Positions 3,231 through 47,238 of a stretch of DNA of 64,000 nucleotides are shown in pieces. The stretch lies in IMG/VR virus record IMGVR_UViG_3300037400_004417; one strand, given 5' to 3'. A model generated the notes under the pieces. The model made no database searches. It was not told the origin of the DNA and saw only the letters and a program-made list of their open reading frames with translations. This DNA is from a virus (lineage: Duplodnaviria; Heunggongvirae; Uroviricota; Caudoviricetes). Numbering within the stretch: position 1 is the first letter of the stretch; each line of letters opens with the position of its first letter. The translations under genes were made by a program, and so were the position numbers.

Positions 3231-3503
3231 TCTTTGAGAGCCTGTGATTCGTCTTATACGATCAAATTTAACTGGATCTGTTTGAACGGCGATATCTAAA
3301 GTCTCAGGATCATCCATATCTGTTACCGTAATAGATACGATATCTTCAATAGAACTATTAGAAACTTTAATAGCCTGTTCAATATAATACTTTTCGTCTT
3401 CAGTACCAGACTCCAATATATTTTCTAATGGTACGCAAATTTTTCTCTGCCAATTAAATAAATGTTCTTCCATTTTTTCCTTTACTCCTTCTCTACTATG
3501 CAA
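3228..3503 (-). CDS. hypothetical protein (possible upstream exon of the gene split by the 2780-3230 intron)
   Basis: 91-aa ORF, no recognisable motif. Confidence 0.35.
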   Translation of the reverse strand: MHSREGVKEKMEEHLFNWQRKICVPLENILESGTEDEKYYIEQAIKVSNSSIEDIVSITVTDMDDPETLDIAVQTDPVKFDRIRRITGSQR

Positions 3504-5824: not shown

Positions 5825-8118
5825 ATAATTTTTTCTGCCGGTAACAATCTATCTTCATAATACATCTTTTCTATATCTTTAATAGTAAGATTACGGAGAT
5901 AATCAGCGCCGAATTTATCCTTCAAGTCCCTTATGATATTATAAACTCTTACATCCTGTTCAGTAGCAAAGTTCTTTCTGACAGTCTTATTCTTAGAAAT
6001 AGATTCTAATAAGCCTCTCTTATATTTCCAGTACTTATAGAAAGGAGTCTTATATTTGAACATAAATCCATTAGAGTCTTCAAAGACATATCCTTCATAA
6101 AAAGGTTCATTGTTGTTTTCATGAAAACTTATAAAAGACTGCAAGTTATCCCAAGAAAAGAAAAGAGCTTTCGGCTTTTTAACTTCTATTTTAAAATCTT
6201 CAGCTATTTTCTTAACTTCTTCATAAGGTTTCTTATTAAACTCAAAGGTATTCTCTATAATATCTAAAAGATATAGATGATCTTTTTCATACCATATAGG
6301 GTGAGAGCTGTCTCTACTATCTACAACTTCAAAGACCATAGTTATGTTATTCTCTTTCAGATAGGTCTCAATTGCTTCTCTTGCATCTGCTGGTAACTTA
6401 CTGAACTGATACTTGAGCATGTCAGAGTATTCACCAGACAACAATGTCTTAGAACAGAACAATAACTTATCTTGTTCTCTGTCATAAGAGATAAGACCTA
6501 AGAAACCGTTCTCTTTCTTGTAGGCTGTCACAGGAAATACTAAAGTATTTTTTAAGGCTTCATCTGTAGTATTCTCTGTTTCAAGCCTGTTAAAAAATTT
6601 AGAATATCCTCTCGCTGCGATATCTCCTGTACTATTATAAACAAATAAGCCTCGAGCAGTACAGGTAAGGTTATTCCATTCTCTGCGCTTAAAAGCGCCC
6701 TTCGTAAAATTGTAAGAAGTTATATGCCCCTGAACAGTCTTTTTAATCAGCTTTGACTTCTCTAGCTGATCAATAATCTCAGTTTTATTATTATCAGAAA
6801 CTGTCACGTTTTCATTAGCAAATACTATAGGAATAATTCTTTCGTTGGGTATAGTATTCTTAATACGATGAACAGTTATCTCAGAAACTTCTAGATTTTC
6901 TTTTTTCTTGATCTGAAGAATTCTTAAATCGCCGCCGGTTTCTACCTTATCACAGAGATTATAAATCTTATTCTTAACTACTTCAGTCTCAACATCATAT
7001 ACATTACGATGAGCATGAATAAAGATACAGTCTGTATCAGACTCTAGAACTTCGTATAGCTTATCAGTATCTTCATACTTACCGACACCGTTAATAAGCT
7101 GATAAGTAGGAGTAAACCAGTCTGGAGGAGTAGGATAGCCACCATGACAGATAAAATAATCTTCTCCGGCAAAATAAAAATAAGCCATCTGAGCGAACTT
7201 GCGGCAGAACTGTCTTAAATCCTTCTTAGAAATATCCTTAATCTGAGGCATTGTATATTCCAAGAACTCCGCAGACCTAATCTTCTGGTGCAGTAAATTC
7301 TTAAGTTCCTTTTTGCTTAAAGTATTTCTCTGTTCATCAGTGACAGGAATTTCGGCGCCGTTGTCATCAGCATACATCCTTAACCATTTTTCATGATTGC
7401 CTTCTAAGAATAATACATTCTTATTCTGAGACAAGTTCATTAAGAATTCCAATGTCTCCTTATTCTGTAAGCCTCTATCTAAATAGTCTCCGGTAAATAC
7501 ATAACCGATCTCATTGTCAAAAGGATGTTCGTCAAACCATTTTTTTAAAGGTTCATAACAACCATGAATATCTCCGAATACCTGTACTTCCTTATAGTTA
7601 GAGTAATCATAGAACGGTTCTTCGTTACAGATAAAATTGCTAGCTTCATCGGGAGTCAAAGTATGAAATCTCTTAGATACTTCTTTATCTGCTTCGAATA
7701 CGGCATACATTTTACGGATAACTGCTTCAGGAACGAATTTGTAAGCATCTCTTTTCTTGTTTCTTTCTAAAGCAGTTTCCAAAGGAACCTGAGTAAAGTC
7801 AACGATAAAGTTTCTGTAGCGGTACTTAGATACTAAGTTTTTGTATCTATTAAGAAGTTCACTCTTATAATGGGTAGCGTCAATGATAATAAGCTCGCCG
7901 CGTTCCATTCTCTGTTCTAGCAGCTCCATTAATAGATCCCATACTTTTCCATCATTATTCTGGGAAATAGTATAATTGCCGTCAATATTCATAATAGGAC
8001 ACTGATACAGCAATCTGATATTGTCAGCAGATAAAGTATATCTTTCTAAATCGTTATCCTTAATCCAAGTAGATTTTCCGGCACCCGGAGCACCTCTTAA
8101 TAAAAATAACATTCGCAT
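5821..8118 (-). CDS. Pnkp-like polynucleotide kinase / metallophosphoesterase / ligase-like end-healing enzyme
   Basis: 765 aa; N-terminal P-loop kinase GAPGAGKST; central calcineurin-type phosphoesterase motifs GDIHG, GDYLDRG, GNHE; roughly 300-aa C-terminal domain in the position of the ligase/adenylyltransferase domain of bacterial Pnkp. Confidence 0.55.
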   Translation of the reverse strand: MRMLFLLRGAPGAGKSTWIKDNDLERYTLSADNIRLLYQCPIMNIDGNYTISQNNDGKVWDLLMELLEQRMERGELIIIDATHYKSELLNRYKNLVSKYRYRNFIVDFTQVPLETALERNKKRDAYKFVPEAVIRKMYAVFEADKEVSKRFHTLTPDEASNFICNEEPFYDYSNYKEVQVFGDIHGCYEPLKKWFDEHPFDNEIGYVFTGDYLDRGLQNKETLEFLMNLSQNKNVLFLEGNHEKWLRMYADDNGAEIPVTDEQRNTLSKKELKNLLHQKIRSAEFLEYTMPQIKDISKKDLRQFCRKFAQMAYFYFAGEDYFICHGGYPTPPDWFTPTYQLINGVGKYEDTDKLYEVLESDTDCIFIHAHRNVYDVETEVVKNKIYNLCDKVETGGDLRILQIKKKENLEVSEITVHRIKNTIPNERIIPIVFANENVTVSDNNKTEIIDQLEKSKLIKKTVQGHITSYNFTKGAFKRREWNNLTCTARGLFVYNSTGDIAARGYSKFFNRLETENTTDEALKNTLVFPVTAYKKENGFLGLISYDREQDKLLFCSKTLLSGEYSDMLKYQFSKLPADAREAIETYLKENNITMVFEVVDSRDSSHPIWYEKDHLYLLDIIENTFEFNKKPYEEVKKIAEDFKIEVKKPKALFFSWDNLQSFISFHENNNEPFYEGYVFEDSNGFMFKYKTPFYKYWKYKRGLLESISKNKTVRKNFATEQDVRVYNIIRDLKDKFGADYLRNLTIKDIEKMYYEDRLLPAEKII

Positions 8119-13858: not shown

Positions 13859-14092
13859 GCACTTTTATTAATAACTTGAATTTCTTCAAGGATCGGACTA
13901 TATCTTTATGCTATTAATAGCATATCTTCCATTTGGATATATAAATCTACGAGCGTAATAGCTCTAGTCTCTGAACCGAGTATTCTTTAAGAATACGATG
14001 GCTGCTGATTGTCGGCGTCGTCAAATTCTTTTATTGACAACACTACGATTTCCAGCAATTAGGAAGATTTTACATGAGCTGTAGAAAAGTTA
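13859..14092 (-). ncRNA. group I intron, nrdD intron 3 (family A, ORF-less)
   Basis: S-like cggactatatcttt (13905) and gctgctgattgtc (13998) on plus strand; exon 3 ends GGT (U), intron ends G; joins ...FAAAMG to CRTRV. Confidence 0.6.
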
Positions 14093-14378
14093 ACCCATGG
14101 CTGCTGCAAAGGTACGATAATCTCCTTCTTTATAGTAAGGAGCATTAAATGATGAAGACGTATTAAGAAAATTAGGGAATAAACGCTTCGCACTTACTTT
14201 GCAAGCATACTGGAATAAATCATAATTAGGATCTCCTTTTTCAAGATTTATTCCTTTATGGATTTGGAATACAGATATTGGGAAAATTGCAGGCTCTCCT
14301 TTTCCCAATCCATTCCATACTGCTTCTAATAAATACTTAGATACTAATCTACCTTCCGGAGAAGTATCCATTCCGAAA
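14093..14378 (-). CDS. nrdD: NrdD exon 3
   Basis: continues the NrdD reading frame; stop at 14090 lies just inside the intron. Confidence 0.6.
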
Positions 14379-15850
14379 TTAATAGAGCTAAATGGTCAGT
14401 AAGTTATTATCTCATGGTTTTTTATCCATGACTCTGGAAGTTTCCTTCATTTGAAGTTATCTCATTAACTAGTCAATTCTAGTTCAGCTTGGCGTACATT
14501 TTCATCCTATTATTAAATAGGAGTAAGACACTCTTGGTTATATTTTATTCTATAAAATAGTTTCAATAACTACGCTCTACGATGATATTGTTTTTTACGC
14601 AATATTTATCTCGGTATTGACATATCTGCTATTATATTCTTGTATAGCGGCCATAGCCTTTTCGTATTTTCTAAATAAATAAGTTGTAGAATCTGTATAT
14701 AAATAATTTATTAATGCAATAACATCTTTCTTAGATGACCATTTAACGGAGAATATTCCTTTTTCATAACTTGGTTTATTAAATGCGATGTTTAATTTGT
14801 TTGATAAATAATTTCTAATATCGTATATAATATTATCATGTCCACAAAATACAATGTGCCATGAAGGATTACGGTTAGTTAAAATTCGTCTATAAATACT
14901 TCCATCTCCATCGAAATATCCTCTTATAAAATGTTTATACATTTCTTCTTTTAATGTAGGAAAAAAACGATTAGGTTTATAATTAACCATTCCATGTCTT
15001 TCTAAATGTTCTACAAATTCATTATTTGTTACACTAATAGAAGATTCATTTTTTCTTTTGTCTATGACAATTTTTCTAGGTGCTTTTATTAAATCCTTTA
15101 TTTTCTTTATCATATAACTATCAGATTCTTGCAATTCAATTGTGAAAAGTTTACTATTATTTTTATATTTATTTATGAAAATACATCCATCGGCAATAAA
15201 TAACCCTAATAAATAAGCTTTTTCTTCACTATCTATTTTTTCAAAAAAGTTAGTTATTAAACTTCCTCTATTTAAATCTTGTCGATTATAAATGGAAATA
15301 TTATTTCTTTCTAAAACTTTTTTTGCCGTTAATTCACATATATGAAATTGTTTTGATAAGGCCTTTATTGACATAGGTTTTGTTAAATAAAAATTTATTA
15401 TCTTATTGTCGTCCAATATTTTTTTATTCATAATTATTTCACCTCCTTTTATCTAAAATAGCAGATTTAGTTTTTACCGACATTGTCTTATTTAAAAAAT
15501 ACATTACTGTATTCTCAGGCTACCATGTTAACCTGCGAACCGGCTCTACTATGACCTAACTACCCTCGGTTTCCCGATATTTATTAGGGGAGTAGACTAT
15601 CTTTTCATTTCTTGTGAAATGTCTCATCTTTTGAATAATAATATTATTCTACTTCCATATTGGAATAGTCGTTACACTTTGCTTTATTATCAAAAAACAA
15701 AGCACGGTATTTGCAGCTATCCTTTTTTATTAAAAGGACCTTAGCGTCTCTTACGGAGCTGATTCGAGCACAATGCCTTATTTAACTCCTACCGTTAGCC
15801 TTAATTATTTATTAAGACACCCTATATTTATAGGTTAATGAGATTTTCCG
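14379..15850 (-). mobile_element. group I intron, nrdD intron 2 (family D), carrying a LAGLIDADG HEG
   Basis: core 15690-15840 is near-identical to the core of the UvrD-helicase intron at 26790-26940; boundaries approximate. Confidence 0.55.
14595..15431 (-). CDS. double-motif LAGLIDADG homing endonuclease with N-terminal HTH
   Basis: YLLGLFIADGCIF and IRGYFDGDGSIY motifs; 278 aa. Confidence 0.8.
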   Translation of the reverse strand: MNKKILDDNKIINFYLTKPMSIKALSKQFHICELTAKKVLERNNISIYNRQDLNRGSLITNFFEKIDSEEKAYLLGLFIADGCIFINKYKNNSKLFTIELQESDSYMIKKIKDLIKAPRKIVIDKRKNESSISVTNNEFVEHLERHGMVNYKPNRFFPTLKEEMYKHFIRGYFDGDGSIYRRILTNRNPSWHIVFCGHDNIIYDIRNYLSNKLNIAFNKPSYEKGIFSVKWSSKKDVIALINYLYTDSTTYLFRKYEKAMAAIQEYNSRYVNTEINIA

Positions 15851-20285: not shown

Positions 20286-20304
20286 GATTAATAGAAGAAG
20301 ACCG

Positions 20305-21373
20305 CTATTCGCAGTCTTCTAAACCTTCTCCTCTTACAATCTGATTATCATATTTTTCTTTTTTATTGATAATTTTCATAGCTATTTCATCATAAGATCC
20401 ATTAGCTATTAGCTGATATACATGAGCAGTATCACTTACGCTATCTGCTCGCTGTATTCTTCCATGTCTTTGAGTCTGTATAGCATAGCTGTTAGCTAAG
20501 TCCATTTCGATAAGATAGGAACACCAACCAAGAGAAATACCTTCAGCGCCGGCGTCTGATAATAGCAATATCTTACATTCAGGATTATCTCTAAATTTTA
20601 TAACATTGGCATATCTTTCATCACCGCTAAGAGAGCCATTTACAAAAGCCAATTCCATATTGAACAAGCTATTTCTTTTGGCTTCTTTGATTATACGCTT
20701 TTCTATTATGTCTTGCATTTTCTTATACCGACTAAATATACAAACTTTTTCTTCGGAATCAATAATTTCTTCTAATAATTCTATTAATAAATCCATTTTT
20801 GGATCTGAAGGAGAATTAGTCATATATTTTTGAGCATGTTCAGAATCACTAAATATTAAAAGTTCTTCAGAATCTGCTAACTCTTGGGCGAATGTTTGCC
20901 TCATCATTATTCCTGCTTCTATCTGTAATAATTCTGGAGGTTTTTCTTTGAGTTGTTTGCCACCTGTTAATGCTTTTTCTTTTTCATGGAGTTCATCTAA
21001 TTCTGCCATAATCCGGTCGTTCATTTTTAGTTGTTTAGGATGTAAATCACAATATCTTTGAGTAACGACTAGTTTCGGTAATTGAGATGAAACTTCTTCC
21101 TTCGTTTTTATTATAGTATATGGACTTATCTTTTCATTGAGTTTCTTTTCATTCCTAGAACCAATTACCCTACCATAACCGCCCCACTTTAAGTATGTAT
21201 TATCAAACTGGGATTTCTTAGGAAAGATTTCAGGATTTATAAACTTAAAGATTCCAAACAAATCTCTAGGATCACGTTGCAATGGAGTAGCAGTAGCACC
21301 CACAGTCATTTTAACATCGTTAAATTCATATAATGATTTAGATCTTTTAGCTGAATCAGATTTTATGTATTGG
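20305..21373 (-). CDS. SNF2-family helicase, exon 2 (motifs III-VI)
   Basis: TVGATATPLQ (motif III), QTQRHGRIQR (motif VI); frame open upstream of the listed Met to about 21373. Confidence 0.65.
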
Positions 21374-21816
21374 CATTAATGTTATTTAATTTCATTTATT
21401 TTATAAAAAAATAAAATTAAATTTCCTATATTTAGGACTCTGATTTTCATCAGAAGTTCAGACTATATCTTCATCCTTATAAAAAAGGAGTCGAGCATTT
21501 CGATTTAAAGGACTTTCACCTACCTGATACCAGGCCCTACTCCTATTGGCATTTCAGCCCACAATGGGATAGTCGTTGAACCTTCTCCTTACTCCACAAG
21601 TGAAGGAGCTTGGCTGCTGATCGTCGATTTTTATTTGAATTTTAGGACTATATTTTTTTATAGCTTTTATTTCACCATGATTCATTTTATTGTTTCTTTC
21701 AGTCTTTCGACAACATTCGCACTTATTATTTCTAATTATGCTGTAGTACAATAAACTTTACGATGTCCCAGCAATTAACTCGATTTTTTCCTACACATTA
21801 CTGTATAGGGAGACCC
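21374..21816 (-). ncRNA. group I intron (family A, ORF-less) in the SNF2 helicase gene
   Basis: S cagactatatctt (21460), R gatagtcgttgaacc (21573), gctgctgat (21612) on plus strand; proposed junction DEIN|IQYIKSD with exon end U and intron end G. Confidence 0.55.
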
Positions 21817-22553
21817 ATATTAATCTCATCCGCTCCAATAAAATCTAATTTCATTTTATGTAATTTAGCTCTTACTTTATCATCATTAAGAGTTTCATAA
21901 TTACATATCATTAAATCTACATTTTCGAATTGTTTATTGAATGCTTCTTCATTTCTGCATTTAGAATAAGTATCTAATATCTTAGAACGATAATCTGTAA
22001 ATTTTGATACTTCTGCATTCCATTGAGCTTTTAAAGATGCTTTAACAACTATTAATCCAGGAGGGGTTATCTTTCCTAAATTAACGGAATCAGAGAATAT
22101 ACCTAGTAAGCAGGCTGTTTTGCCAGCTCCACAACCTGCGACGATAAGACATTTTTCATTATCTGTCGCGAATTTGATTATATCCTGTTGATATTTATAA
22201 GGTTTAAGTTTTAAACTTAATCCTGCAGATTCAGAATCAATTATTTTTTGGCTAGATCCAAAAATCTTATTGACTCTATTGTTATGAGCAGTAATTCTTT
22301 TTTCTGTTCTATCCTTTTTAGCAGGAAATACTTCGTCGTTTAATTTGATTAGCTTATTTAATGCATATTCAGATATAAGCCAATCTCCTGATTCTATGTC
22401 CATACAAGATTCAGATTTTCTATCTCCAATGATATACATAAATTTATCGAAGTATTTCATAGCTTTAGATGAACTAGAAATATTTACAGCGAATTTATTA
22501 TCTTTATTCTGAAGTTTACGATAATAAAACAATTCTTTCTTGATGACCTTCAT
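21817..22553 (-). CDS. SNF2-family helicase, exon 1 (Walker A and DExx)
   Basis: AGCGAGKTA Walker A, GADEIN motif II. Confidence 0.65.
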
Positions 22554-24611: not shown

Positions 24612-25760
24612 TTAAGTTTTTACTACGTATTGGGAATTTATCTCCTTGATAAATCGTGAAGGTTTGTTAGGGAACACGCCTCTTTTAGTAAGTACAGTGG
24701 TTGGATAGGTTATAAAAAGATACTTTTCGGCTCTCGTCATTCCGACATAGAATAACCTTCTTTCCTCTGAAATATCTCCAGCCTGTATTGCTTTTATATG
24801 AGGAACAACTTCTTCATTTGCTCCAACTATAATTACAGCTGGAAATTCCAAACCTTTAGATGCATGCATAGTCATTAGATTAACATAATCATCTTCATCT
24901 TGTTCTTCTGTCATCTGGGTATTCATTATAACATTATTAGAAAAGTCAGCTAAATCTACATAATTACATGCTACTTCTCTTAACTCTACTAAATTAGCTA
25001 ACTTTTCAGGAACTAATTCTTCTTCTGCTGTTTCACTAATATAGTCCTCATAATGAACCATATTAATGATCTCTTTAACTATGTCTTCAGGACTATTTGC
25101 TAAGCAATATTCGGTTAAAGTTTCAATTACAGCGATAAATCTGTTCAAATTTTCTCTTGTTGTCTTTGTTACCTTCACATTTTTACAAGCGGATAATAAT
25201 CCCCCGTTGTCTATTGTACCATGTTCATCAGCATATGTAAAGACCTTTTCTAAAGTTTTATCTCCAATTCCTCTCTTTGGAACGTTGATAATACGTCTTA
25301 ATGCTTCTGAATCATTAGGGTTTAATAGAAATCTGACATATGCCATAATATCTTTGATTTCTTGTCTCGCATAGAAAGCTAAACCGCCGGTGATTTTATA
25401 AGGAATTCTATTCTTTAACATAGCCTTTTCTATACGCCTAGACAAAAATTGCATTCTGTAAAGTATCGCCATATCTTTATATGCCATACCTTTTTTCTTT
25501 AAAGCTTTAACAATACGTACTACATGGTTTGCTTCATCAGTACTATTAGTCAACGCAGATAACATAATGCTGTTTCCTACTTCATTTTCAGTAAAAACAG
25601 TTTTCTTAATAGGTTCGTCATTGTTCTTAATCATACTGCGAGAAGCATTTACGATAGTTTTTGTGGATCTATAATTTTGTTCTAACATAAATTGTTTAAA
25701 ATTATATGTCTTCATAAAATCATATACGGATCCCATATTTGCGCCTCTGAAACTATATAT
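24612..25760 (-). CDS. UvrD/PcrA-like helicase, exon 3 (motifs IV-VI)
   Basis: IYSFRGA...LEQNYRSTKTI...VGMTRA; in-frame extension upstream of the Met to 25760. Confidence 0.75.
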   Translation of the reverse strand: MYSFRGANMGSVYDFMKTYNFKQFMLEQNYRSTKTIVNASRSMIKNNDEPIKKTVFTENEVGNSIMLSALTNSTDEANHVVRIVKALKKKGMAYKDMAILYRMQFLSRRIEKAMLKNRIPYKITGGLAFYARQEIKDIMAYVRFLLNPNDSEALRRIINVPKRGIGDKTLEKVFTYADEHGTIDNGGLLSACKNVKVTKTTRENLNRFIAVIETLTEYCLANSPEDIVKEIINMVHYEDYISETAEEELVPEKLANLVELREVACNYVDLADFSNNVIMNTQMTEEQDEDDYVNLMTMHASKGLEFPAVIIVGANEEVVPHIKAIQAGDISEERRLFYVGMTRAEKYLFITYPTTVLTKRGVFPNKPSRFIKEINSQYVVKT

Positions 25761-27000
25761 CTTTTTTATTTATTATATATACATTGATAAAAATACATGA
25801 ACATCATAGGTAATACATTTAATAATAAAAAACATCTCAAAGGAGTGTATACCTATGACAGAAAAACAGATATGTAAACAACAACAAATGATTGCGGCAG
25901 CAAATGAGTTTATCAAAGGAGCTAAACCGCAAGAAGTAATGAAAAAATACAATATATGTTATGCTTCCATTTGGAACACAATCAAAAGATATAATCTTCC
26001 TTACAAAAAGACATGGGGAAGAGAAATATTTTTTGATATTGATTTCTTTGAAAAAATTGATACAGAAGCAAAAGCTTATTGGTTAGGATTTATTTTTGCA
26101 GATGGTTCTGTAGTCAAAACAGACAAAAACTTACAAGAATATAATCGAGTATGTGTATCAATATCAGCAAAAGACATTGCCCACCTTCAAAAACTAGAAT
26201 CAATTCTTAATTTTTCTAAACCTAATAGAATCAAAATTTATAAAAAAACTCCAAATGCTTCATTTAAAAGTGAATATGACACTTGTTATCTTCATCTAAA
26301 TTCGATAAAATTATGTTCTGATATCATAAATCATGGTTGCGTTCCACAGAAAACATATGATACTACTCATAATCCACAAAATATCCCAGATCACTTAATA
26401 TGTCATTTTATAAGAGGATATTTCGATGGAGATGGAAGTATTTCTGGAAAACTAAAATCCCCAATGTTCAGTATTACGACATCAAAAAACCATAATGAAT
26501 GGATACAGTCTTATTTAATGCGTTTTTGCAATCTAAACAAGACTAAACTAACTTTTTGTCGCAATGCTTATCAATTAGATTATGGAGGAATAAATCAAAT
26601 TGTTCGTATTTTTCATTATTTATATGATGATGCTACTATTTATCTTGAACGTAAATATAATAAATTTTACTCTTATGTTTCTAATAGAGAACAGACTATC
26701 TCTTCATCCTTATCTGAAAAAGATAAGGAGCTCGGCACTTCGGCATAGGATTTTCACCACAGCCTACGAGAATCACTTCTCTAGTCGTTACACTCTTATA
26801 ATATTGTATATTATACTAGCACGGTATTTCCAGCTATCCTTTGTTTTGCAAAGGACCTTAGGTTCTCTTACGGAGCGTATTCAATATATTAACTCCTACC
26901 GTTAGCCCTCATTTTTAATAAATAAAACAAGGACACCCTATATTATATAGGTTCACCGAGGATTAATTATTCATTGCTGAATAAAAGAGCAATATAGTTT
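25761..27000 (-). mobile_element. group I intron (family D) in the UvrD-like helicase, with an antisense LAGLIDADG HEG
   Basis: exon 2 ends ...DADQS (AGT, U) at 27001; intron ends in G at 25761; exon 3 resumes IYSFRGA; core 26790-26940 is homologous to nrdD intron 2. Confidence 0.65.
25855..26748 (+). CDS. double-motif LAGLIDADG homing endonuclease, on the strand opposite to its host intron
   Basis: YWLGFIFADGSV and FIRGYFDGDGSIS; own RBS aaaggagtg. Confidence 0.8.
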   Translation: MTEKQICKQQQMIAAANEFIKGAKPQEVMKKYNICYASIWNTIKRYNLPYKKTWGREIFFDIDFFEKIDTEAKAYWLGFIFADGSVVKTDKNLQEYNRVCVSISAKDIAHLQKLESILNFSKPNRIKIYKKTPNASFKSEYDTCYLHLNSIKLCSDIINHGCVPQKTYDTTHNPQNIPDHLICHFIRGYFDGDGSISGKLKSPMFSITTSKNHNEWIQSYLMRFCNLNKTKLTFCRNAYQLDYGGINQIVRIFHYLYDDATIYLERKYNKFYSYVSNREQTISSSLSEKDKELGTSA

Positions 27001-27645
27001 ACTCTGATCAGCGTCAAGTATCAAACATACATTCATAGACTTACCGCCTAACAATTCAATTAAATGTAAATCTTCAGGGCTGCTATCATGTGCTTCATCA
27101 CAAGTTATATAAGTATATTTATCATTAATAGCTTCTTTTACTTCTGGATAGTTATCTAATAATTCAATAGTATAATAAATCAAGCCATCAAAATCAAAAG
27201 CATTATTTGCTTTCATTCTCTGTGAATACTGTTGATAAATTCTTGCGAGTGATTCAAAATATCTTCCAGAAGCTCCTAATAAAGCCTCTGAAGGACTAAC
27301 TAGATTCATTCTCCAATGAGAAATCATCTGCGAAGCATTTTGTGGTTCTACTGCAGGAATAGTCTTCTTGCATAATTCTTTTAAAAGTTTCTTTTTATCA
27401 TCTTCATCATAAATAGAATAATTTCTTGTCCAACCGATTTTATCCGCATATAATCGAAGAAGCTTTGAGCAGAAACTATGATAAGTACCGACAGTAATGC
27501 CTTTTGATTTAGGTCCAATCTTTTTGTATACTCTTTCCTTTATCTCATTTGCAGCTTTCTTTGTAAAGGTAAACAGTAAAATATTCTTAGGAGAAATTCC
27601 ATCTTCAATCATTAAAGTAGTTCTAGCAATTAGAGTTGCAGTTTT
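27001..27645 (-). CDS. UvrD/PcrA-like helicase, exon 2 (motifs Ia-III)
   Basis: KTATLIARTTLMIEDGISPKNILLFTFTKKAANE...GTYHSFCSKLLR...DADQS. Confidence 0.75.
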
Positions 27646-27977
27646 CCAATTGTTATTAACCTACGGCTTTTTATCCGTAGCTCTGGAGGTTATCCTCATT
27701 TTCATCGGTTAGTCTTTTCTAACCCAGTGTAGCGTACCTTTTGCATATAGCTTCTATATTTAATATAGAAGTAAAACTGTAAATATGGACCGGCCTCTTG
27801 GGAACATTATATCTTTTCAGTTCCTACGCGTTGCTCCTCATCTTACTTTGCAAGATGTTCGGTTCTGATTAGGTTTATAACCCTTCCAGCTTAATTCCGG
27901 CCTAATAATTCAGAAACTTCATACAGTCTTTGTTTCTGAACGGCAATATTTAATGTAATTCATTACATTACACAATT
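27646..27977 (-). ncRNA. group I intron (family B, ORF-less) inside the Walker A codons of the UvrD-like helicase
   Basis: exon 1 ends GPGSG (GGT) and exon 2 starts AAA ACT (KT); intron ends G at 27646; family-B core motifs at 27670-27700, 27775-27830, 27860-27900. Confidence 0.65.
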
Positions 27978-28105
27978 ACCACTACCTGGTCCCGCGTTTA
28001 CTGCACAAGGACCGTAATACTCTAATGCTGCTTGCTTTTGCTGGTTATTTAATGGAGCCAGCACCTTCTCCTTTATATTTTTAAATTCTACATTTGTTTC
28101 TGCCA
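27978..28105 (-). CDS. UvrD/PcrA-like helicase, exon 1
   Basis: MAETNVEFKNIKEKVLAPLNNQQKQAALEYYGPCAVNAGPGSG. Confidence 0.6.
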
Positions 28106-28144
28106 TAATAAAACATTAACCTTCTTCCTATGGTTACGATACCA

Positions 28145-28342
28145 TTAAATATTTAGATACTGTAAAGGATTATCGTCAGAAGCGTTGCGACTTTCTTCAT
28201 CTTCCATTTCTCCATTGATAACCTGAGCCAATGCTTCGGTAGTTGTTCTACATCCATATTGATCATAACCAGTTGCTTCAAATTCAAAAGTTCCATCGTT
28301 ATCGATAACAATCTTTATTCTTTTCTGTGCCATTTTTATCAC
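28145..28342 (-). CDS. hypothetical protein
   Basis: 65-aa ORF. Confidence 0.3.
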   Translation of the reverse strand: MIKMAQKRIKIVIDNDGTFEFEATGYDQYGCRTTTEALAQVINGEMEDEESRNASDDNPLQYLNI

Positions 28343-28850: not shown

Positions 28851-29432
28851 TTATAAAGAGAATATATTTCCGAATCCTTTTTCTACATTTGTCTTAAATG
28901 ATTCTTTAGAAATATCATTCTTTTTATCTGGAATAATATCCGTATTTCTTGCTCTACCTATACTCCAATTCTGCAAAGCAATAATCTTTTCCTTAGAGGA
29001 TATAGATATAGGAATAACTTCACTGATGGCTTCAGACATTATAGCTTCCGAAAAAACATCTGATTTTATCTTTGTATCTTTATATCTAAGAAAATCTTTA
29101 CGTAAGCAAGTATATATAACTTCTTTAATCTCAGCACCAGTATATCCATCTGTCTTAGATACAATATAATCTAACGTTGCCTTGTCAGAAGATTTGTTAA
29201 TCTTCTTTAGATATATAGAAGCTATTTCTCTTCTTTCTTCTTTCTTTGGAAGATCAAAGAACCATTGAGCATCTATACGACCAGATCTCGTAAATTCAGG
29301 AGGTAACATAGTTATATCATTAGAAGTCATTATAACAAATACTCCATTATCATTATCTTGCATGAACTTTAAGAAGCTGGCCATTATTCTATTTCCAACA
29401 CCTCCATCGGTTCGAGCTGAGGCAGCAGTATT
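28851..29432 (-). CDS. classical AAA ATPase, exon 2 (second-region-of-homology and lid)
   Basis: ...TDGGVGNRIMASFLKFMQDNDNGVFVIMTSNDITMLPPEFTRSGRIDAQWFFDLP; frame open upstream of the Met. Confidence 0.6.
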   Translation of the reverse strand, partial: NTAASARTDGGVGNRIMASFLKFMQDNDNGVFVIMTSNDITMLPPEFTRSGRIDAQWFFDLPKKEERREIASIYLKKINKSSDKATLDYIVSKTDGYTGAEIKEVIYTCLRKDFLRYKDTKIKSDVFSEAIMSEAISEVIPISISSKEKIIALQNWSIGRARNTDIIPDKKNDISKESFKTNVEKGFGNIFSL

Positions 29433-29724
29433 CTAGATATTTTTATCCTATAGTTTTTTATCTATAGCTCTGGAGGTCGCCCTCATTTTCATCGGATGAT
29501 CAATACATCCCAGCATAGCATATCTTTTTATGTAGTTCTATATTGATTATAGAAATAGTACTGTAAACATAGAACGGTCTCTTGGTGAGATTATATCTTT
29601 TCACTCACTATGCGTTGCCCCTGACTTATCTTAAATAAGCCTTCGGTTCTGATTAGGTTTATAACCCTCCCAGCTTAATACCATTCTAATCATCGAGATT
29701 CTTCATACAGTCATTGAATCTCGA
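29433..29724 (-). ncRNA. group I intron (family B, ORF-less) in the AAA ATPase gene
   Basis: family-B motifs tctatagctctggaggtcgccctcattttcatcgg (29460), ggtctcttggtgagattatatcttttca (29575), cttcggttctgattaggtttataaccc (29640); boundaries approximate. Confidence 0.55.
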
Positions 29725-30808
29725 CGGCAAAAAATTCACCATTAATTGCTTTCTCTATCTCATCTACTAACAAGACACATGGAGCACATTTTCTTACGAT
29801 ATTTAAAGCTTGTTCTATTTTCTGTTCTGATTCTCCGACTAACTTAGACATAATCTTTGCAGGATTAAAAGATATAAACGGCATATTCATCATACCTGCA
29901 AATGCTTCTGCAATAGCTGTCTTAGCACATCCAGCTACACCCGTAAATACTGCACCTTTTGGGGCGGGTATATTAAACTCTCTAGCTTCTTCGCTAAAGA
30001 ATTCTTTTTCTTCGTATAACCATTTCTTAATGGCTCTATTCCCGCCAATGTCTTCCAAGGTCGTTTCAGGAATCTTATAATCTAATAAGCCACTCTTCTT
30101 GATAATTTGAATCTTGCTGTTAAGAAGGTGTTTAGGAGATATAGTATTTTCTTTAGTGAAAGATTCAGCAAGCGCCATACTAGCCTCTCGATAAGTGATA
30201 CCGCTAAGGGCTTTAACAGCTTCATCAATAATTTCTTCAGTAACGGATACATAATTGTTATTTCCTTTTTCTATATAGTATTTTAGCTTATCGTTGACCG
30301 CGCAAACTAATTTTCTAATATCTTCTTCTTCTGGATAGCCATAATCTACTACTCTAAAGAATCTGGAAATAGATTCTGGTATGTTTACGGTACCTGACGT
30401 ACAAATTACGATATTTGTTCCTTCACATCTATTTCCTTCATTTATTTCCTTGAAATATGAAGGAATCTTATCCATAGTCAAAAAATCATTAAAGTCTTTT
30501 AGTATAAATATATTGTTTGATGGCTCCTGATTACCTCGAAGTCCAATAATATCACTAATATGTTCTAAGATTGCCATAGGTTCTCTTAGTTTTAAATTAG
30601 GAGCTTCTTTATTGGATTCATCAAAGAAAGTTTCTACTCTTAATAATCCTCCTGAATTGCTCCAAGAATATAAATTAAATTCGCGACATTTATCAGAAAC
30701 CAACTCTGTCATGTCTTCAATAAATTCTTTTGATTCGAAAGTCGTTACCCAAATACAAGGCAAGCCTATATTTATTAAATTTTCAATTTCATTTAAACTT
30801 TGTCTCAT
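29725..30808 (-). CDS. classical AAA ATPase, exon 1 (N-domain, Walker A/B)
   Basis: GVAGCAKTAIAEA Walker A, LLVDEIEKA Walker B. Confidence 0.65.
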
Positions 30809-44275: not shown

Positions 44276-45446
44276 CGATTATACCCTTGCTTTTGCAATA
44301 TTTAAAAATTCATCATATATTTCTTTTTTTCTATCTAAATAAATGGTTGCATCTAAATACATAATGTTTAAAATTTTATATAATTGAATATTTCCTCCAA
44401 TATGTAATTCAAATGCATTATTATGAGGTACGATTTTTAAATTGTTTTTATTGAAATAACTAGATATACCTTTTAACATATCTTTAGTTCCAGTAAAACC
44501 CAAACAATATTTTTTTTGGTTATTGTAATTGTAATATGATAAAGATCCATCACCATCAAAATATCCTCGAATAAAATGATGTATTAAATCTTTCGGAACA
44601 ATATTGTCTGTTGGAAAATTTAATAAATATGTTTTGTGTTCGGCAACACCTTTATCTTTTAAATCATTTACAGTTTTGCTACTTGTTAACAGTATTTTTG
44701 CGAACATATTTTCTTTTGCAAATCCACTACCTTTATATATTTTAATAGGATTTGTAGCTTCAATATCTTTTTTAAATTTATATAAATGATTTATCTCTGA
44801 ATGTTTTAAAGTTATACCTATTTTTTGATTTGAATTTTCTCTTTTTGATTCAATAAAACCATCAGCATATAAAAATCCTAACCAATAAGCTTTATGCTCT
44901 GTATTTATTGTTTCAAAAAAAGATTCATTATGAAAATATTTTCTAGAATTTATAGAATTATTTCTAATTGTGATATTATGTTCTTTTAAAATATTCGATA
45001 GAGTTTTTCTATCATGATTGTATTTCTTTTCTAAAGAACGTAAAGATATGTTATTTTCATAATCAACAATTAAATTTTGCAATTCATTTATTGATAGATT
45101 TAATTTTTTTGCCATAAATACCATTCCTTTGTTATATATTTATATATTTATTACTACAAAGTAAATGATATTTATACAAATGGCGTAAATATATTTAATG
45201 TATAGGGTCTAGATCATATCTTCACCATATTTTTATATTGTCATAAAAACTTAGGTTGCTCCACTTCCTTCTTAAAATATATTATTTAGAAGTAAGTCCG
45301 AATGGACTGATCGTTGAACCTTCTTTATTTATTATAAAGATTGGCTGCGAATTGTCCATTTAATTTAAATAATAAAAAATGGATATCCTCGCAATTCAGA
45401 GCTCTTTAAATTATATCTTTCGATATAATACGACTGTTAAAATTCA
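44276..45446 (-). mobile_element. group I intron, gyrB intron 2 (family A), with a LAGLIDADG HEG whose stop lies 3 nt from the 3-prime splice site
   Basis: exon 2 ends ...MNDAD (GAT, U) at 45447; intron ends G at 44276; S ctagatcatatcttca (45215), R gactgatcgttgaacc (45307), ggctgcgaattgtcc (45343). Confidence 0.7.
44279..45124 (-). CDS. double-motif LAGLIDADG homing endonuclease with N-terminal HTH
   Basis: YWLGFLYADGFI and FIRGYFDGDGSLS. Confidence 0.8.
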   Translation of the reverse strand: MVFMAKKLNLSINELQNLIVDYENNISLRSLEKKYNHDRKTLSNILKEHNITIRNNSINSRKYFHNESFFETINTEHKAYWLGFLYADGFIESKRENSNQKIGITLKHSEINHLYKFKKDIEATNPIKIYKGSGFAKENMFAKILLTSSKTVNDLKDKGVAEHKTYLLNFPTDNIVPKDLIHHFIRGYFDGDGSLSYYNYNNQKKYCLGFTGTKDMLKGISSYFNKNNLKIVPHNNAFELHIGGNIQLYKILNIMYLDATIYLDRKKEIYDEFLNIAKARV

Positions 45447-46646
45447 ATCTGCATCGTTCATTAATATTATCTTATGATATCTTAATTTATCTAAATTAAA
45501 TTCTTCGCCTATCCCACACTTTAAAGCCTTTACTAAATCCATAATTTTTGGGCTTTTTAAAATTTTATCTAAGGTAGTTTTAGTAGAGTTTAAACCTTTA
45601 CCAAAAAATGGCAAGATTGCTTGAGTTCTTCTATCTCTTCCACCTTTAGCACTACCTCCTGCAGAATCGCCCTCTACTATAAATAGCATACATTCTTCGG
45701 GATTTTTAGAGCTACAGTCTGCTAATCCTTCTACGTGTCCACTATCTATAGCTTTAACACCTCTAGCGGTATCACGTGCTTTTCTAGCTGCTTCTCTAGC
45801 TTTTGCAGCCTTTAAAACTTTTTCAATAATTAAAGTACTTCTATTTTTATCTTGAGATAAGAAATCATATATATATTCTTCTATAGCCTCTTTTACGGAA
45901 GAATATATGTTTTTCATTCTAAGACGGCCTTTTCCCTGTCCTTCAAAAACAGGGTCCTTTAATTTAACAGAGACTATAGCTGTTAAACCTTCCTGACAAT
46001 CATCACTCGTGATTTGGCTAGCTTCTTTGATATGATTATATTCTAAAGCATATTTTCTAATTGCGTTAAATAATCCTGCTTTAAACCCTGTCTCATGATC
46101 GCCACCATAAATAGTGATTACATCATTAACGAAAGATTTAATATTAGGAGAAAATGTTTCAATATAAGACATAGCTATATCTATATCGACATTTCTCTCT
46201 ATATTCTCATTATTAAACTTTATAGTATACTGAGACGTCTTAGAGAAACTAATAGGTTCCAGTATCGGTGTTTTATTTGCGATAGATTCTTTTACATATC
46301 CAATTAATCCCTCCGGATAACAATAAGATTCATCTATCTTTACCGGCTTATTATCCTTATCTACAGAATCTACATAATAATTTAAAGTTAACCCTGGATT
46401 TAAATAGGCTAATCTTTTTATATGTTTATTTAATTCGATAAAATCGAACCATTCATCTTGCCATATATCTGAATCAGGGATAAAATGTATTTCTGTTCCC
46501 GTTACATCTTTCTCTATCTGTTCTCCTGTTTCATATAAAGGCTTCGTTAATAATCCTTTAGAATATTCAATAGCATATTCTTTTCCATTAGTTCTAACTA
46601 CTGCTTTAAAGAAATCAGATGTAGCATTTACACAACTTATACCTAC
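45447..46646 (-). CDS. gyrB: DNA gyrase subunit B, exon 2 (transducer and Toprim)
   Basis: VGISCVNATS..., EGDSAGGSAKGGRDRRTQAILP, KLRYHKIILMNDAD. Confidence 0.8.
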
Positions 46647-46902
46647 CATTTATGTTCGATTAAGGTCGCTAATCTTAATCCGTTCTCCTACGAACTGCTT
46701 TATGTTTCCATAAAGATCAGACTATATCTTTTTCGATTTTTCTTGAAAGTTTCTGTTTCCATTCGCTTGAATGTACGGCTTATTGCCTAGTCGTTGAACT
46801 CTATTATATAATATCAGCTGCTGATTGTCCTTATATTATAATATAAGGGGATTCCAGCATTTAAGAAACTTTTACAACGGCATATTTTTTTTATGCGGTT
46901 TT
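46647..46902 (-). ncRNA. group I intron, gyrB intron 1 (family A, ORF-less)
   Basis: exon 1 ends ...SGLNG (GGT, U) at 46903; intron ends G at 46647; exon 2 starts VGISCVNA, restoring GLNGVGISCVNA; S cagactatatcttt (46715), R gcctagtcgttgaac (46790), gctgctgattgtcc (46817). Confidence 0.7.
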
Positions 46903-47238
46903 ACCGTTTAAACCTGAAGTATTTGTTGTGTATCCATCTTGTGATGAAAACTTGCCACCTGCATGTAAAGAGCCTATTGCAAGCTCAATTTGACGTTTAT
47001 CTTCATATCCTGGAGTTTTAGAATATCCAATAGGGATACCGCCGCCATTATCTTCTACGATAACTTCTTTATCTATGATAGCGGTGGTTATGATAGAACA
47101 TCTCCCGGCGCTCGCTTCATCTCTAGAATTATCTAAAGCCTCATTAATACAATGATCAATAGAAGGGAGATACATTCCTCTTCTCATTCTAACATTGTCT
47201 GGAAAATCTAATACGCTTATTTGTGCTTGTTCCGCCAT
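46903..47238 (-). CDS. gyrB: DNA gyrase subunit B, exon 1 (GHKL ATPase N-terminus)
   Basis: VRMRRGMYLPS...EALDNSRDEA...VEDNGGGIP...LHAGGKF. Confidence 0.8.

Follow-up and report, generated by a model that had tools for sequence, protein, structure and literature searches.

The window, a 64,000-nucleotide stretch of phage DNA, carries on its minus strand a UvrD-type helicase gene whose N-terminal and C-terminal domains are separated by a segment encoding a LAGLIDADG protein on the opposite strand. This arrangement raises the question of whether the separating segment is a mobile group I intron that carries its homing endonuclease gene (HEG) antisense to its own ribozyme, and how the two would share the same DNA. 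Our analysis indicates that it is very probably a mobile group I intron in which the HEG forms an autonomous opposite-strand cassette lodged in a P9.1-like terminal loop.

A group I intron in motif III of the helicase gene

The helicase gene is divided around the intron as follows.

27001-27612, minus strand: helicase exon 2, UvrD/REP N-terminal domain (Pfam PF00580, 2.4e-48), ending ...LILDADQS with AGU as its last codon
25761-27000, minus strand: group I intron 2 of the UvrD-type helicase gene, 1240 nt, last base G (omega-G, the complement of 25761)
24612-25760, minus strand: helicase exon 3, UvrD_C (Pfam PF13361, 5.3e-67), beginning IYSFRGA
Minus strand, predicted ligated exon junction: ...GAUCAGAGU|AUAUAUAGUUUC..., in a wider form ...GATCAGAGT|ATATATAGTTTC...

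The minus-strand frame reads CTT GAC GCT GAT CAG AGT (LDADQS) up to 27001 and ATA TAT AGT TTC AGA GGC GCA (IYSFRGA) from 25760. Because the helicase frame stops at 27001 and restarts at 25760, the interruption is 25761-27000. The insertion point is exactly motif III of the helicase (DADQS|IYSFRGA), where removal of the intron restores continuous coding, and intron-less related helicases (n = 27) are uninterrupted exactly at the DQS|IY codon. One of these 27, L023, is ~99% identical in both flanks to L048, a related locus with intron and HEG; apart from the intron, which measures 1277 nt, the two differ solely in the last codon of the exon, GCU in L048 and UGC in L023, and L023 represents a natural empty site for the helicase intron. 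The frames, the intron-less homologues and this pair all match the junction given in the initial annotation, and comparison of the sequences confirmed that 25761-27000 is a group I intron within a phage UvrD-type helicase gene. The junctions enclose the ORF at 25855-26748, which thus lies inside the intron, as had been claimed.

The ribozyme was assigned on the minus strand with the following elements.

26670-27000, minus strand: ribozyme core, the first ~331 nt of the intron, assigned by hand and with RNAalifold covariation, a helix table and Rfam alignments of the homologues L050 and L006
27000-26992, minus strand: P10 guide AAACUAUAU
26990-26986, minus strand: P1 guide GCUCU
26984-26967, minus strand: P2, containing the exon-frame stop UGA (26973-26971)
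26960-26956 with 26735-26731, minus strand: P3
26902-26897 with 26826-26821, minus strand: P4
26786-26782 with 26698-26694, minus strand: P7
About 26780-26745, minus strand: P7.1/P7.2
26728-26721 with 26715-26708, minus strand: P8
26689-26670, minus strand: P9

P1 is formed by AGAGU/GCUCU with a U.G wobble at the 5' splice site, the splice following the U, and in L048 the wobble U comes from the GCU codon. P10 (AAACUAUAU/AUAUAGUUU) comprises 9 bp between the first nine intron nucleotides and exon 3 bases +3 to +11. When eight lineages were compared, both P1 and P10 covaried with the exon sequences, the exon-tracking variants being AGAGU/GCUCU, GGCU/GGCC and GUGGGU/GCCCAC, together with AAACUAUAAAU/AUUUAUAGUUU in L051. 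RNAalifold supported P1, P3, P6 and P9 on the helicase strand, with double changes in five of the six P3 pairs, and both arms of P4 vary (ACGGUA/UACCGU against ACGGGG/UCCCGU, the latter with a G.U wobble as its sixth pair). R/S-like elements are present in the window core (compare the group I ..ACGACUA.. / ..AGAUAGUC..), and the consensus segments of the ribozyme family read GGUGAACC...GGGUGUC...GCUAACGG...GUGUAACGACUA...AGAUAGUC.

The Rfam model RF00028 matched four homologous cores over their full length on the helicase strand, all below the gathering score (L050, 41.1 bits and E 4e-7; L048, L006 and L046, E 1.5e-4 to 9e-3). A search of 25400-28300 at E<=10 returned only noise and no group I match to the window's own intron, and whole-window Rfam searches recovered other introns but not the helicase-intron family. 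Since Rfam is silent on the window copy, the intron assignment rests on comparative analysis and on the RF00028 matches to homologues. RNAalifold further indicated two extra hairpins between P3 and P4 that could not be matched to canonical elements, and P8 is missing from one lineage (L010/L014). These features and the unmatched window copy count against the core assignment, and the catalytic competence of the ribozyme is a presumption. Another RNAalifold proposal, a pairing of the conserved CGAAGUG with GCUUCG, was rejected, as L050 keeps CGAAG without the partner. Covariation in P1, P3, P9 and P10 and the RF00028 matches to four homologues support a ribozyme encoded on the helicase strand.

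A related intron lies in nrdD in the same window.

14595-15836, minus strand: nrdD intron used for comparison (spanning 15865 to about 14400), with its core at 15836-15701 and its HEG at 15431-14595 in sense orientation

Nucleotides 58-193 of the helicase intron are 76% identical to the nrdD core (146 nt aligned, E 4e-24), and the LAGLIDADG gene of the nrdD intron is paralogous to the helicase-intron HEG (27% identity, E 2e-22), which bears out the earlier observation of a homologous nrdD core with a sense HEG. The two introns share the ribozyme family, a PHROG 4645 HEG located downstream of P9, and GTAAT(G/A) upstream of that HEG; they differ in that the nrdD HEG lies on the ribozyme strand and does not overlap the core.

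The antisense endonuclease gene and the DNA it shares with the ribozyme

The gene, its putative expression signals and the RNA elements that surround it are listed below.

25784-25815, plus strand: putative promoter-like element of the HEG, TTGATA (25784-25789), a 20-nt gap and GTAATA (25810-25815)
25840-25845, plus strand: AAGGAG, the Shine-Dalgarno sequence of the HEG, with 9 nt to the ATG, read from the sequence
25855-26748, plus strand: LAGLIDADG homing endonuclease gene, 297 aa, ATG start, the intron's only long ORF
26651-26665, minus strand: 5' arm of the closing helix (long-range, P9.1-like), identified by inverted-repeat search, duplex energies against controls and compensatory changes in eight lineages
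25768-25782, minus strand: 3' arm of the closing helix, located 7 nt before the 3' splice site, identified by inverted-repeat search, energies and compensatory changes
26651-26748, both strands: 98-bp dual-use zone, comprising the final 33 codons of the HEG (residues 266-297 and the stop)

The encoded protein matched Pfam LAGLIDADG_3 (PF14528) with 36.4 bits against a cut-off of 22.5 and the 'endonuclease' family PHROG 4645 at 5.7e-53, and it had 2,922 database homologues at E<=1e-5, the best non-self one at 66% identity. It consists of an N-terminal three-helix (HTH-like) domain, a core with two LAGLIDADG motifs, GFIFADGS (D83) and GYFDGDGS (D193), and a C-terminal tail for which disorder is predicted; both Asp residues are present without exception in an alignment of 19 family members. 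The AlphaFold model (mean pLDDT 85.4) has two helix/beta-sheet halves, with pLDDT <50 for tail residues 280-297. Foldseek returned I-AniI as its best structural match (9e-9), followed among others by bI3 maturase and I-HjeMI, and a PDB profile search also retrieved I-HjeMI (3.4e-5). The product thus fits a monomeric double-motif LAGLIDADG homing endonuclease, with activity predicted from sequence and model. A dN/dS of 0.13-0.14 was obtained for the gene, and AT skew changes sign across the ORF, as expected of an opposite-strand gene. Pfam, PHROG and the homologues agree with the plus-strand 297-aa LAGLIDADG ORF described earlier, and the ribosome-binding site attributed to it is the AAGGAG at 25840-25845; SD-like purine tracts also precede the HEG start in other lineages. 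The possibility of a decayed pseudogene, raised at the outset, is contradicted at the sequence level by the invariant catalytic Asp residues, the low dN/dS and the confident AlphaFold model, and these data confirmed the ORF to be a genuine, intact gene under purifying selection.

A search for a plus-strand promoter upstream of the HEG had been proposed in the initial annotation. A canonical sigma-70 promoter did not emerge: the scan gave 17 promoter-like sites compared with 11.4 +/- 3.6 in shuffled sequences, which is no enrichment, none of them compelling upstream of the HEG, and the upstream element is a poor sigma-70 match whose -10-like hexamer has no usual A at position 2. What did emerge is a conserved GTAAT(A/G) element, found 28-72 nt upstream of 10 of the 12 HEGs of the family and, in the window, placed between the closing-helix arm and the ribosome-binding site. 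As this element precedes sense and antisense HEGs alike, it suggests that the HEG is a self-contained cassette of putative promoter plus ORF. A terminator scan of the intron region found no plus-strand terminator, including none before exon 2.

The 3' end of the HEG overlaps the ribozyme. The dual-use zone is antisense to the closing-helix arm, P9, P7', J8/7, P8, P3' and part of P7.2; the plus-strand reading of the 5' arm encodes K267-Y-N-K-F271 of the HEG, and the tail peptide ..EQTISS.. is what GAGAUAGUCUG encodes when read as its reverse complement, with QTISS antisense to J8/7-P7. The closing helix was found in all eight lineages, with dG values of -12.7 to -18.3 kcal/mol, and in a random-window control only 5-71 of 1000 windows reached its energy. 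The coding arm keeps the codons K-Y-x-K-F, where the x codon varies (N/K/D/T/Q) and the non-coding arm changes to match it, and in three lineages G.U pairs make the intron-sense helix far more stable than the HEG-sense helix. We rejected an interpretation of the flanking inverted repeat as the relic of a DNA-level inversion, because one arm is constrained by coding while the other tracks it and the G.U pairs in these three lineages favour the intron-sense RNA. The same DNA is constrained as protein on one strand and as ribozyme structure on the other, with compensatory evolution visible between the two.

Distribution, proposed mechanism and competing explanations

A single-sequence query found no related helicase loci, and an alignment query was needed to recover them. 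An antisense HEG was found between UvrD halves in all 10 of the closest HEG homologue clusters examined (38-66% identity), which are on phage-like metagenome contigs. The antisense layout therefore occurs in 11 of 11 contexts when the window is included, and these contexts are spread over three insertion points within UvrD helicases. Besides the main site, related introns with a HEG of this family occupy a position 15 nt upstream in L050 and a third position of the gene in L051, which fits continuing endonuclease-driven movement. The helicase and HEG trees are incongruent: the helicases of the window and L006 are 36% identical while their HEGs are 68% identical, and the nearest helicase relatives of the window (55%) are intron-less. 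Exon identity has fallen to ~37%, yet the ribozyme core remains conserved. Given this patchy distribution and its incongruence with the helicase phylogeny, the intron is best explained, on sequence comparison, as a mobile element. Synonymous sites are saturated between most lineages, which suggests that most of the spread of intron and HEG is ancient, the L048/L023 pair being the one sign of a recent gain or loss.

Searches of 50,697 deposited phage records by blastn and tblastn yielded no close relative, the hits being limited to short stretches of intron core and to HEGs of <=35% identity. The HEGs checked among these records, in 0305phi8-36 and the crAss-like cr116_1, share the strand of their hosts, the helicases of the Bacillus jumbo phages KLEB27-3 and Edson are intact, and a cultured-phage example of an antisense HEG intron was not found among the relatives checked. 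IMG/VR and GTDB genomes gave distant HEG relatives alone, with at most 41% and 36% identity. In a crude flank-strand survey of 80 viral and 80 genomic loci, both neighbours were on the opposite strand in 9 and 1, respectively; at least one of these loci, L138, additionally borders an antisense group I S/R element. A strict S-element regular expression applied near genomic HEGs gave 12 sense and 5 antisense matches, some of which probably arose by chance.

We propose that the helicase pre-mRNA, transcribed from the minus strand, folds the ribozyme core from the 5' part of the intron, that P1 and P10 align the exons, and that splicing restores motif III, while ribosomes arriving from exon 2 would halt at the UGA within P2. 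The closing helix (26665-26651/25782-25768) would loop out ~870 nt of antisense-HEG sequence and thereby bring the 3' splice site to the core. With the HEG antisense, the intron part of the pre-mRNA carries neither its ribosome-binding site nor its ORF, so that translation could not disturb ribozyme folding. The HEG itself would be transcribed from the opposite strand via TTGATA-N20-GTAATA and translated from AAGGAG. Its enzyme would then cleave, in co-infecting relatives whose helicase allele has no intron, the sequence coding for motif III, and repair of the cut allele would copy in both intron and HEG. Self-splicing, the activity and target of the endonuclease, promoter function and timing are what we infer from these sequences.

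Three other explanations were weighed against this mechanism. One dispenses with splicing: a free-standing HEG would separate two helicase halves that are translated separately and assemble, the RNA-like flanks being relics. Gene callers do give two helicase ORFs in every relative, the intron end AAUG creates an in-frame AUG opening exon 3 in six of the eight lineages, and the window has AGAGG 7 nt before an internal AUG at 25736. However, the break would fall in the middle of the conserved motif III, L006, L010 and L046 have no Shine-Dalgarno sequence before the junction AUG, and in the L048/L023 pair the allele with the intron has its final exon codon altered so as to put U at -1. Rather than standing free of a ribozyme, the HEG is surrounded by a covarying core whose P1 and P10 guides track the exons, and that core is conserved despite the divergence of the exons; we therefore regard a split gene as highly improbable. 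A domesticated or inactive HEG, retained as a maturase (splicing cofactor) or otherwise in an intron that is no longer mobilised, is also quite improbable. The folds it most resembles are those of I-AniI, a bifunctional endonuclease/maturase, and bI3 maturase, the saturated synonymous divergence indicates that most copies are old, and the extra hairpins and the P8-less L010/L014 might require a protein cofactor; but both catalytic Asp residues have been kept throughout the 19 aligned members, and the incongruent, patchy distribution, the 99%-identical plus/minus pair and the related introns at the L050 and L051 sites speak for mobility.

The remaining explanation takes up the suggestion in the initial annotation that antisense transcription could modulate splicing or HEG expression. 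Plus-strand transcription of the HEG would actively control the splicing or abundance of the helicase, or expression of the HEG itself, whether by forming duplexes, by RNase III cleavage or by transcriptional collision, and the element would be a timing switch and no mere selfish insert. The complementarity would cover ~1 kb of intron including 98 nt of the core, the HEG mRNA is necessarily complementary to P9, P7', P8 and P3', read-through antisense to exon 2 is possible with no plus-strand terminator before it, and the orientation is strictly conserved in all contexts. Common descent of one composite element, however, accounts for the conserved orientation equally well, and we found no conserved antisense-specific feature beyond the ribozyme and protein constraints. 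Furthermore, sense paralogues in the same genome share the upstream element, so the antisense orientation is not needed for HEG expression. Active control of this kind is accordingly considered unlikely, and its specific form, in which the HEG transcript, complementary to P3'-P9 and possibly exon 2, acts as a timed antisense switch on helicase splicing or expression, or the reverse, is slightly more doubtful still. If such a switch did operate, a widespread intron/HEG composite would be a phage gene-regulatory device and the strict antisense orientation in the clade would reflect selection for switch function.

The helicase-intron clade comprises old, widespread phage introns that carry the antisense arrangement. 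It supports the view of HEGs as promoter-plus-ORF cassettes that invade introns in either orientation, and it offers a natural test bed for HEG expression insulated from ribozyme folding under coupled transcription and translation. RF00028 misses such introns and gene callers label them "two helicase fragments plus an endonuclease"; surveys of introns and HEGs in phage metagenomes that are limited to same-strand ORFs will undercount them.

Comparison with known intron systems

IStrons combine a 5' group I ribozyme with IS200/IS605 genes as 3' cargo. Like the helicase intron, they have a complete 5' core, long cargo and a short 3' segment with the splice site; the cargo of the helicase intron, however, is a homing endonuclease with no transposase/TnpB, the element has no transposon ends, and it would spread to the homologous site. 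In the T4 introns, the HEG is expressed from promoters of its own and sits in a loop outside the core, the sunY ORF lies 3' of the core, and an exon-frame stop follows soon after the 5' splice site, as in the helicase intron. The T4 td, nrdD (sunY) and nrdB group IA introns with I-TevI/II/III also have P7.1/P7.2-type extensions and reside in genes of DNA and nucleotide metabolism (PMC2988022). The T4 HEGs are sense-oriented and of the GIY-YIG or HNH type, whereas the helicase intron carries an antisense LAGLIDADG gene; HEG translation from the early T4 pre-mRNA must be repressed, a problem that does not arise for an antisense ORF. In cyanophage S-PM2, a psbA intron is accompanied by the adjacent free-standing F-CphI and the antisense RNA CfrI (cited in PMC3428280). 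As would hold for the helicase intron, a phage intron, a homing endonuclease gene and antisense transcription are physically linked there, but the HEG reportedly lies outside the intron on the same strand and the antisense RNA is non-coding.

As far as we found, group I introns with antisense HEGs have been reported from the nuclear rDNA of protists, red algae and fungi only. Our literature search turned up no bacterial or phage group I intron said to carry its HEG antisense, an absence that is no proof of novelty, and neither a review on group I introns of bacteria (PMC3984707) nor a 2025 intron/HEG database paper (PMC11835236) mentions the arrangement. The documented cases include Dir.S956-2/I-DirII of Didymium iridis and Dsq.L2066/I-DsqI of Didymium squamulosum, nuclear rDNA introns with antisense His-Cys box HEGs (PMC9548176, PMC3073962). 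They resemble the helicase intron in that a HEG with its own promoter (putative in the helicase intron) lies opposite the ribozyme and the host gene in a mobile intron. The comparison with other opposite-strand intron HEGs proposed at the outset therefore held for an opposite-strand HEG in a peripheral helix, but not for the His-Cys box, nuclear rDNA or Pol II-type expression. The helicase-intron HEG is a LAGLIDADG gene in a protein-coding gene of a phage and not in eukaryotic rDNA, and its signals are bacterial (SD), the spliceosomal intron and poly(A) signal of the I-DirII/I-DsqI type being absent. Expression of the rDNA antisense HEGs is explained by separate polymerases and compartments, and the nucleolus/nucleoplasm separation that has been proposed as a guard against antisense interference there is inapplicable to a phage intron. 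In addition, unlike in I-DirII and I-DsqI, the 3' end of the helicase-intron HEG overlaps the catalytic core and its codons form an arm of a structural helix. Taking these comparisons together, the helicase intron works like the I-DirII/I-DsqI introns but is no member of that group.

Intron in the helicase gene

The locus lies in an AT-rich region (G+C about 26-40% across the 5 kb profiled), and nearly all long ORFs of the window are on the minus strand. Pfam searches revealed one UvrD/PcrA-type helicase spread over three minus-strand ORFs, interrupted within motif III, which is restored when exons 2 and 3 are joined. Exon 2 ends at 27001 with ...GAC GCT GAT CAG AGT (DADQS) and exon 3 starts at 25760 with ATA TAT AGT TTC AGA GGC GCA (IYSFRGA). 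The intervening 1240 nt contain no notable sense ORF. The core elements were assigned by inspection of the 5' ~331 nt of this sequence.

Features of the helicase gene and its second intron
28106-27963, minus: helicase piece 1, Walker A start (PF00580 positions 1-25)
27612-27001, minus: helicase exon 2 (PF00580, 2.4e-48)
27000-25761, minus: intron
26990-26986, minus: guide GCUCU, pairing with the exon end AGAGU, U.G at the splice site
26973-26971, minus: stop UGA in the exon 2 frame, within the P2 hairpin (GCAA loop)
minus: R-like element GUGUAACGACUA and S-like element GAAGAGAUAGUCUG, together forming P7
minus: P7.1/P7.2-type hairpins between P7 and P3'
minus: P8 hairpin and P9 hairpin, P9 ending at G26670
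25760-24612, minus: helicase exon 3 (UvrD_C, 5.3e-67)

Hairpins of the P7.1/P7.2 type are a feature of subgroup IA. The last intron base is G, and an inverted-repeat search found P10, in which the first nine intron bases AAACUAUAU pair with exon 3 bases +3 to +11. The Rfam model RF00028 gave the window intron no score, while in four relatives the homologous intron gave full-length matches, on the helicase strand and below the gathering score (L050, 41.1 bits, E 4e-7; L048, L006 and L046, E 1.5e-4 to 9e-3). RNAalifold, applied to eight "mini-introns" with the endonuclease gene deleted, recovered P1, P3, P6 and P9, with bases changed in a compensatory way (five of the six P3 pairs show double changes), and proposed two extra hairpins between P3 and P4, outside the assigned elements. 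A helix table further showed that P1 follows exon changes (AGAGU/GCUCU; GGCU/GGCC where the exon encodes DQA; GUGGGU/GCCCAC in L050), as does P10 (AAGCCAUA/UAUGGCUU; AAACUAUAAAU/AUUUAUAGUUU in L051), and P4 is altered on both sides (ACGGUA/UACCGU versus ACGGGG/UCCCGU, the sixth pair being a G.U wobble). The interruption is a helicase-strand group I intron, presumably self-splicing. The introns of L010 (4904-6096) and L014 (2991-4183), both on the minus strand, have no P8, P3' UUAAUU being followed directly by AAAAAGAGAUAGUC; this lineage is the most often sampled (16 and 9 contigs), and its intron may depend on a protein cofactor or an alternative fold.

In six of eight lineages (L006, L010, L014, L046, L048 and L051), the intron ends in ...AAUG, placing an in-frame AUG directly before exon 3. 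Gene callers begin the C-terminal helicase ORF there; the AUG has no Shine-Dalgarno (SD) sequence in front of it. Sub-threshold Rfam matches to RF03531 (n00280, "C. difficile sRNA included into helicase gene") fall within helicase exon 3 (window 24700-24797, minus; L048 2806-2903; L051 2846-2946; L006 3815-3913) and most likely reflect conserved coding sequence rather than an RNA gene. The N-terminal helicase ORF of L053 (4561-6336, minus, 591 aa) also matches Hom_end/LAGLIDADG_3, suggesting that the gene hosting the antisense-endonuclease intron also has an intein in this relative.

Antisense endonuclease gene and its overlap with the ribozyme

The initial annotation had placed the junction at DADQS|IYSFRGA and a LAGLIDADG homing endonuclease gene (HEG) with its own RBS on the opposite strand of the intron, and each of these proved right to the base: the plus-strand ORF 25855-26748 has 297 codons, AAGGAG lies 9 nt upstream of its start, and the AT skew changes sign over exactly this ORF. 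The product matches LAGLIDADG_3 (36.4 bits, cut-off 22.5), a weak N-terminal HTH_23, and PHROG 4645 "endonuclease" (5.7e-53), and has 2,922 homologues at E<=1e-5 in a large protein database. Across 19 aligned family members, neither LAGLIDADG motif nor its catalytic Asp (D83 in GFIFADGS, D193 in GYFDGDGS) varies, and dN/dS was 0.14 for L010/L014, a pair that is not saturated, and 0.13 for the window and L006. In the AlphaFold model (mean pLDDT 85.4), three helices make up an N-terminal domain, followed by a LAGLIDADG core of two lobes and a helix at the C-terminus; the closest folds are the monomeric intron enzymes I-AniI (9e-9), bI3 maturase and I-HjeMI, in agreement with a sequence-profile search of the PDB. 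Judged by these coding signatures, the ORF is real and intact, and it encodes a LAGLIDADG homing endonuclease that would cleave a presumed target site.

The intron also contains an inverted repeat that pairs 26665-26651, just past P9, with 25782-25768, 7 nt before the 3' splice site. An equivalent helix was found in all eight lineages, with duplex energies of -12.7 to -18.3 kcal/mol; of 1000 random windows taken at the same loci, only 5-71 did as well, and the helix table showed compensatory changes in every lineage. Because this closing helix is conserved and covaries, the ~870 nt carrying the HEG form the terminal loop of a P9.1-like peripheral helix, which is the usual sort of home for an intron ORF, here inverted. 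In three lineages, the helix is far weaker in HEG-sense RNA than in intron-sense RNA, owing to G.U pairs.

On the plus strand, the bases of the closing helix's 5' arm encode K267-Y-N-K-F271 of the HEG, within the C-terminal motif RKYxKF, which is nearly invariant; the x codon varies (N, K, D, T or Q), and the non-coding 3' arm varies to match. Past F271, the ORF crosses P9, P7', J8/7, P8 and P3' and enters P7.2 before its stop, so that its overlap with the helix arm and the ribozyme core totals 98 bp. The tail peptide ..EQTISS.. is encoded by CAG ACT ATC TC, the complement of GAGAUAGUCUG, and the same "QTIS" imprint occurs in homologue clusters P0002-4, P0006-7, P0009-10 and P0034, while other homologues have "DYIS" or "SLLFS" tails, imprints of AUAUAGUC or of P9. 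Since the tail is predicted to be disordered (residues 280-297, pLDDT <50), it looks like tolerated read-through.

Distribution and mobility

The identical HEG protein occurs on three more metagenome contigs with the layout unchanged. All ten of the closest homologue clusters with fetched context (P0002, P0003, P0005, P0006, P0009, P0014, P0017, P0021, P0022 and P0037; 38-66% identity), on contigs of up to 256 kb from gut and other metagenomes, likewise carry the HEG antisense between N- and C-terminal helicase ORFs. The insertion site is shared by six of seven relatives with mapped junctions (L006, L010, L014, L046, L048 and L051); in the seventh, L050, a related intron with an antisense HEG sits 15 nt upstream (VVG|DDYQAIYGFRG). 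L051 carries a second antisense LAGLIDADG HEG (5360-6388, plus, 342 aa) further upstream in the same helicase gene, and its C-terminus (..EYWTIPSSQ) overlaps a canonical group I core (6421-6300, minus; GUUCAGAGACUA ... GGUAUAGUCC). In the wider HEG family, the layout is a minority one: HEGs with both neighbours on the opposite strand account for 9 of 80 viral loci and 1 of 80 genomic loci. At least one such relative, on a 236-kb IMG/VR phage contig (L138; HEG 2501-3283, plus, 36% identity), has opposite-strand genes on both sides and, on the opposite strand at ~3297-3363, group I S and R elements 14 and 80 nt past the HEG stop; it seems to be a further intron with an antisense HEG, outside the UvrD clade.

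Among 28 IMG/VR helicase relatives, 27 are continuous exactly at DQS|IY. The window helicase is nearest to that of the intron-less L018 (55%), and it shares only 36% identity with that of L006, yet the window and L006 HEGs are 68% identical; on these identities, the distribution of intron and HEG is incongruent with the helicase tree. The intron-less IMG/VR contig L023 is a natural empty site: it is ~99% identical to L048, which has the intron and HEG, over flanks of 3.9 and 3.5 kb, and differs by the 1277-nt intron and the last exon codon, which is GCU in L048 and UGC in L023. The GCU codon supplies the -1 U and P1 pairing, and its change looks like flanking co-conversion.

The window holds three minus-strand introns of one ribozyme family (16690-16410, 15865-~14400 and 27000-25761), with the signature GGUGAACC-hairpin-GGGUGUC ... 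GCUAAC(G/A)GG ... GUAACGACUA / CAAUCGACUA ... AUAGUC; RF00028 misses all three. The nrdD copy 16690-16410 has no HEG and stops right after P9, which suggests that the 3' extension and HEG of the other two are an add-on. The window is very intron-rich, with four further Rfam-detected group I introns in nrdD, the SNF2 helicase and gyrB. By reading-frame logic, a first helicase intron lies at GSG|KTATLIA (~27977-27646), and the AAA ATPase gene 28851-30808 is also split (~29710-29385).

Other introns and endonuclease genes of the window
13874-14148, 21438-21832, 45199-45456, 46698-46920, all minus: group I introns (Rfam)
15431-14595, 42149-41337, 45124-44279: LAGLIDADG HEGs, all sense-oriented

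Contig L004 shares HEG, helicase exons and gene order with the window (tblastn 100%). Its SNF2-helicase intron region contains an extra sense 200-aa LAGLIDADG ORF (681-1283) that is absent from window ~20300-21800, indicating HEG presence/absence polymorphism between close relatives. In L011 and L012, an IS605 OrfB/TnpB (Cas12f-like) gene (613-1857, minus) adjoins the SNF2 helicase at the position where the near-identical contigs L010 (405-1430, minus) and L013 have a LAGLIDADG HEG, which may represent IStron-like replacement of intron cargo. A RAGATH-18 RNA motif was also detected at 55226-55287 (minus; 66.4 bits, E 4.9e-11, above the gathering score).

Expression and comparison with known systems

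A sigma-70 promoter scan of the HEG region was uninformative. GTAAT(A/G) occurs 28-72 nt upstream of the start codon in 10 of 12 HEGs of the family, including the three sense-oriented ones in the window (starts 15431, 42149 and 45124) and antisense ones in relatives, and TTGnnn usually lies 17-19 nt upstream of the -10-like hexamer nGTAAT. For the antisense HEG, the putative element falls inside the loop, between the closing-helix arm and the RBS.

Putative promoter-like element of the antisense HEG
25784-25789, plus: TTGATA
25810-25815, plus: GTAATA

We infer that the HEG moves as a promoter-RBS-ORF cassette, expressed independently of the host-gene transcript through this putative promoter; such autonomy would explain function in either orientation. 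The best-supported model is an ordinary, mobile group I intron carrying an HEG cassette that happens to face backwards; splicing, endonuclease activity, target site, promoter function and timing are presumed. As read from the sequence, the pre-mRNA offers ribosomes neither an RBS nor an ORF within the intron, and those translating exon 2 terminate in P2; therefore, translation cannot unfold the ribozyme. The orientation would carry costs, in that the loop and 98 nt of the core would have a complement in the HEG mRNA, and transcription would be convergent in a genome otherwise transcribed one way. Regulatory use of this arrangement, as suggested in the initial annotation, is conceivable but less likely. 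Strong SD sequences and nearest helicase relatives in Bacillus jumbo phages point to a host in Bacillota.

A full-text literature search found no antisense HEG in a bacterial or phage group I intron, and neither a review of bacterial group I introns (PMC3984707) nor a 2025 intron/HEG database paper (PMC11835236) mentions one. The observation of an antisense HEG is well supported, and its mechanism is ordinary in most respects; two points stand out: an old and widespread clade has kept the antisense layout, and the same DNA codes for both protein and ribozyme, with visible compensatory changes. Antisense HEGs are known in nuclear rDNA group I introns, namely, the His-Cys box enzymes I-DirII and I-DsqI, the latter likewise being in a P9-region helix with its own promoter (PMC9548176, PMC3073962). 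The introns of phage T4 share the phage context and autonomous HEG promoters, but their HEGs are sense-oriented (PMC2988022).
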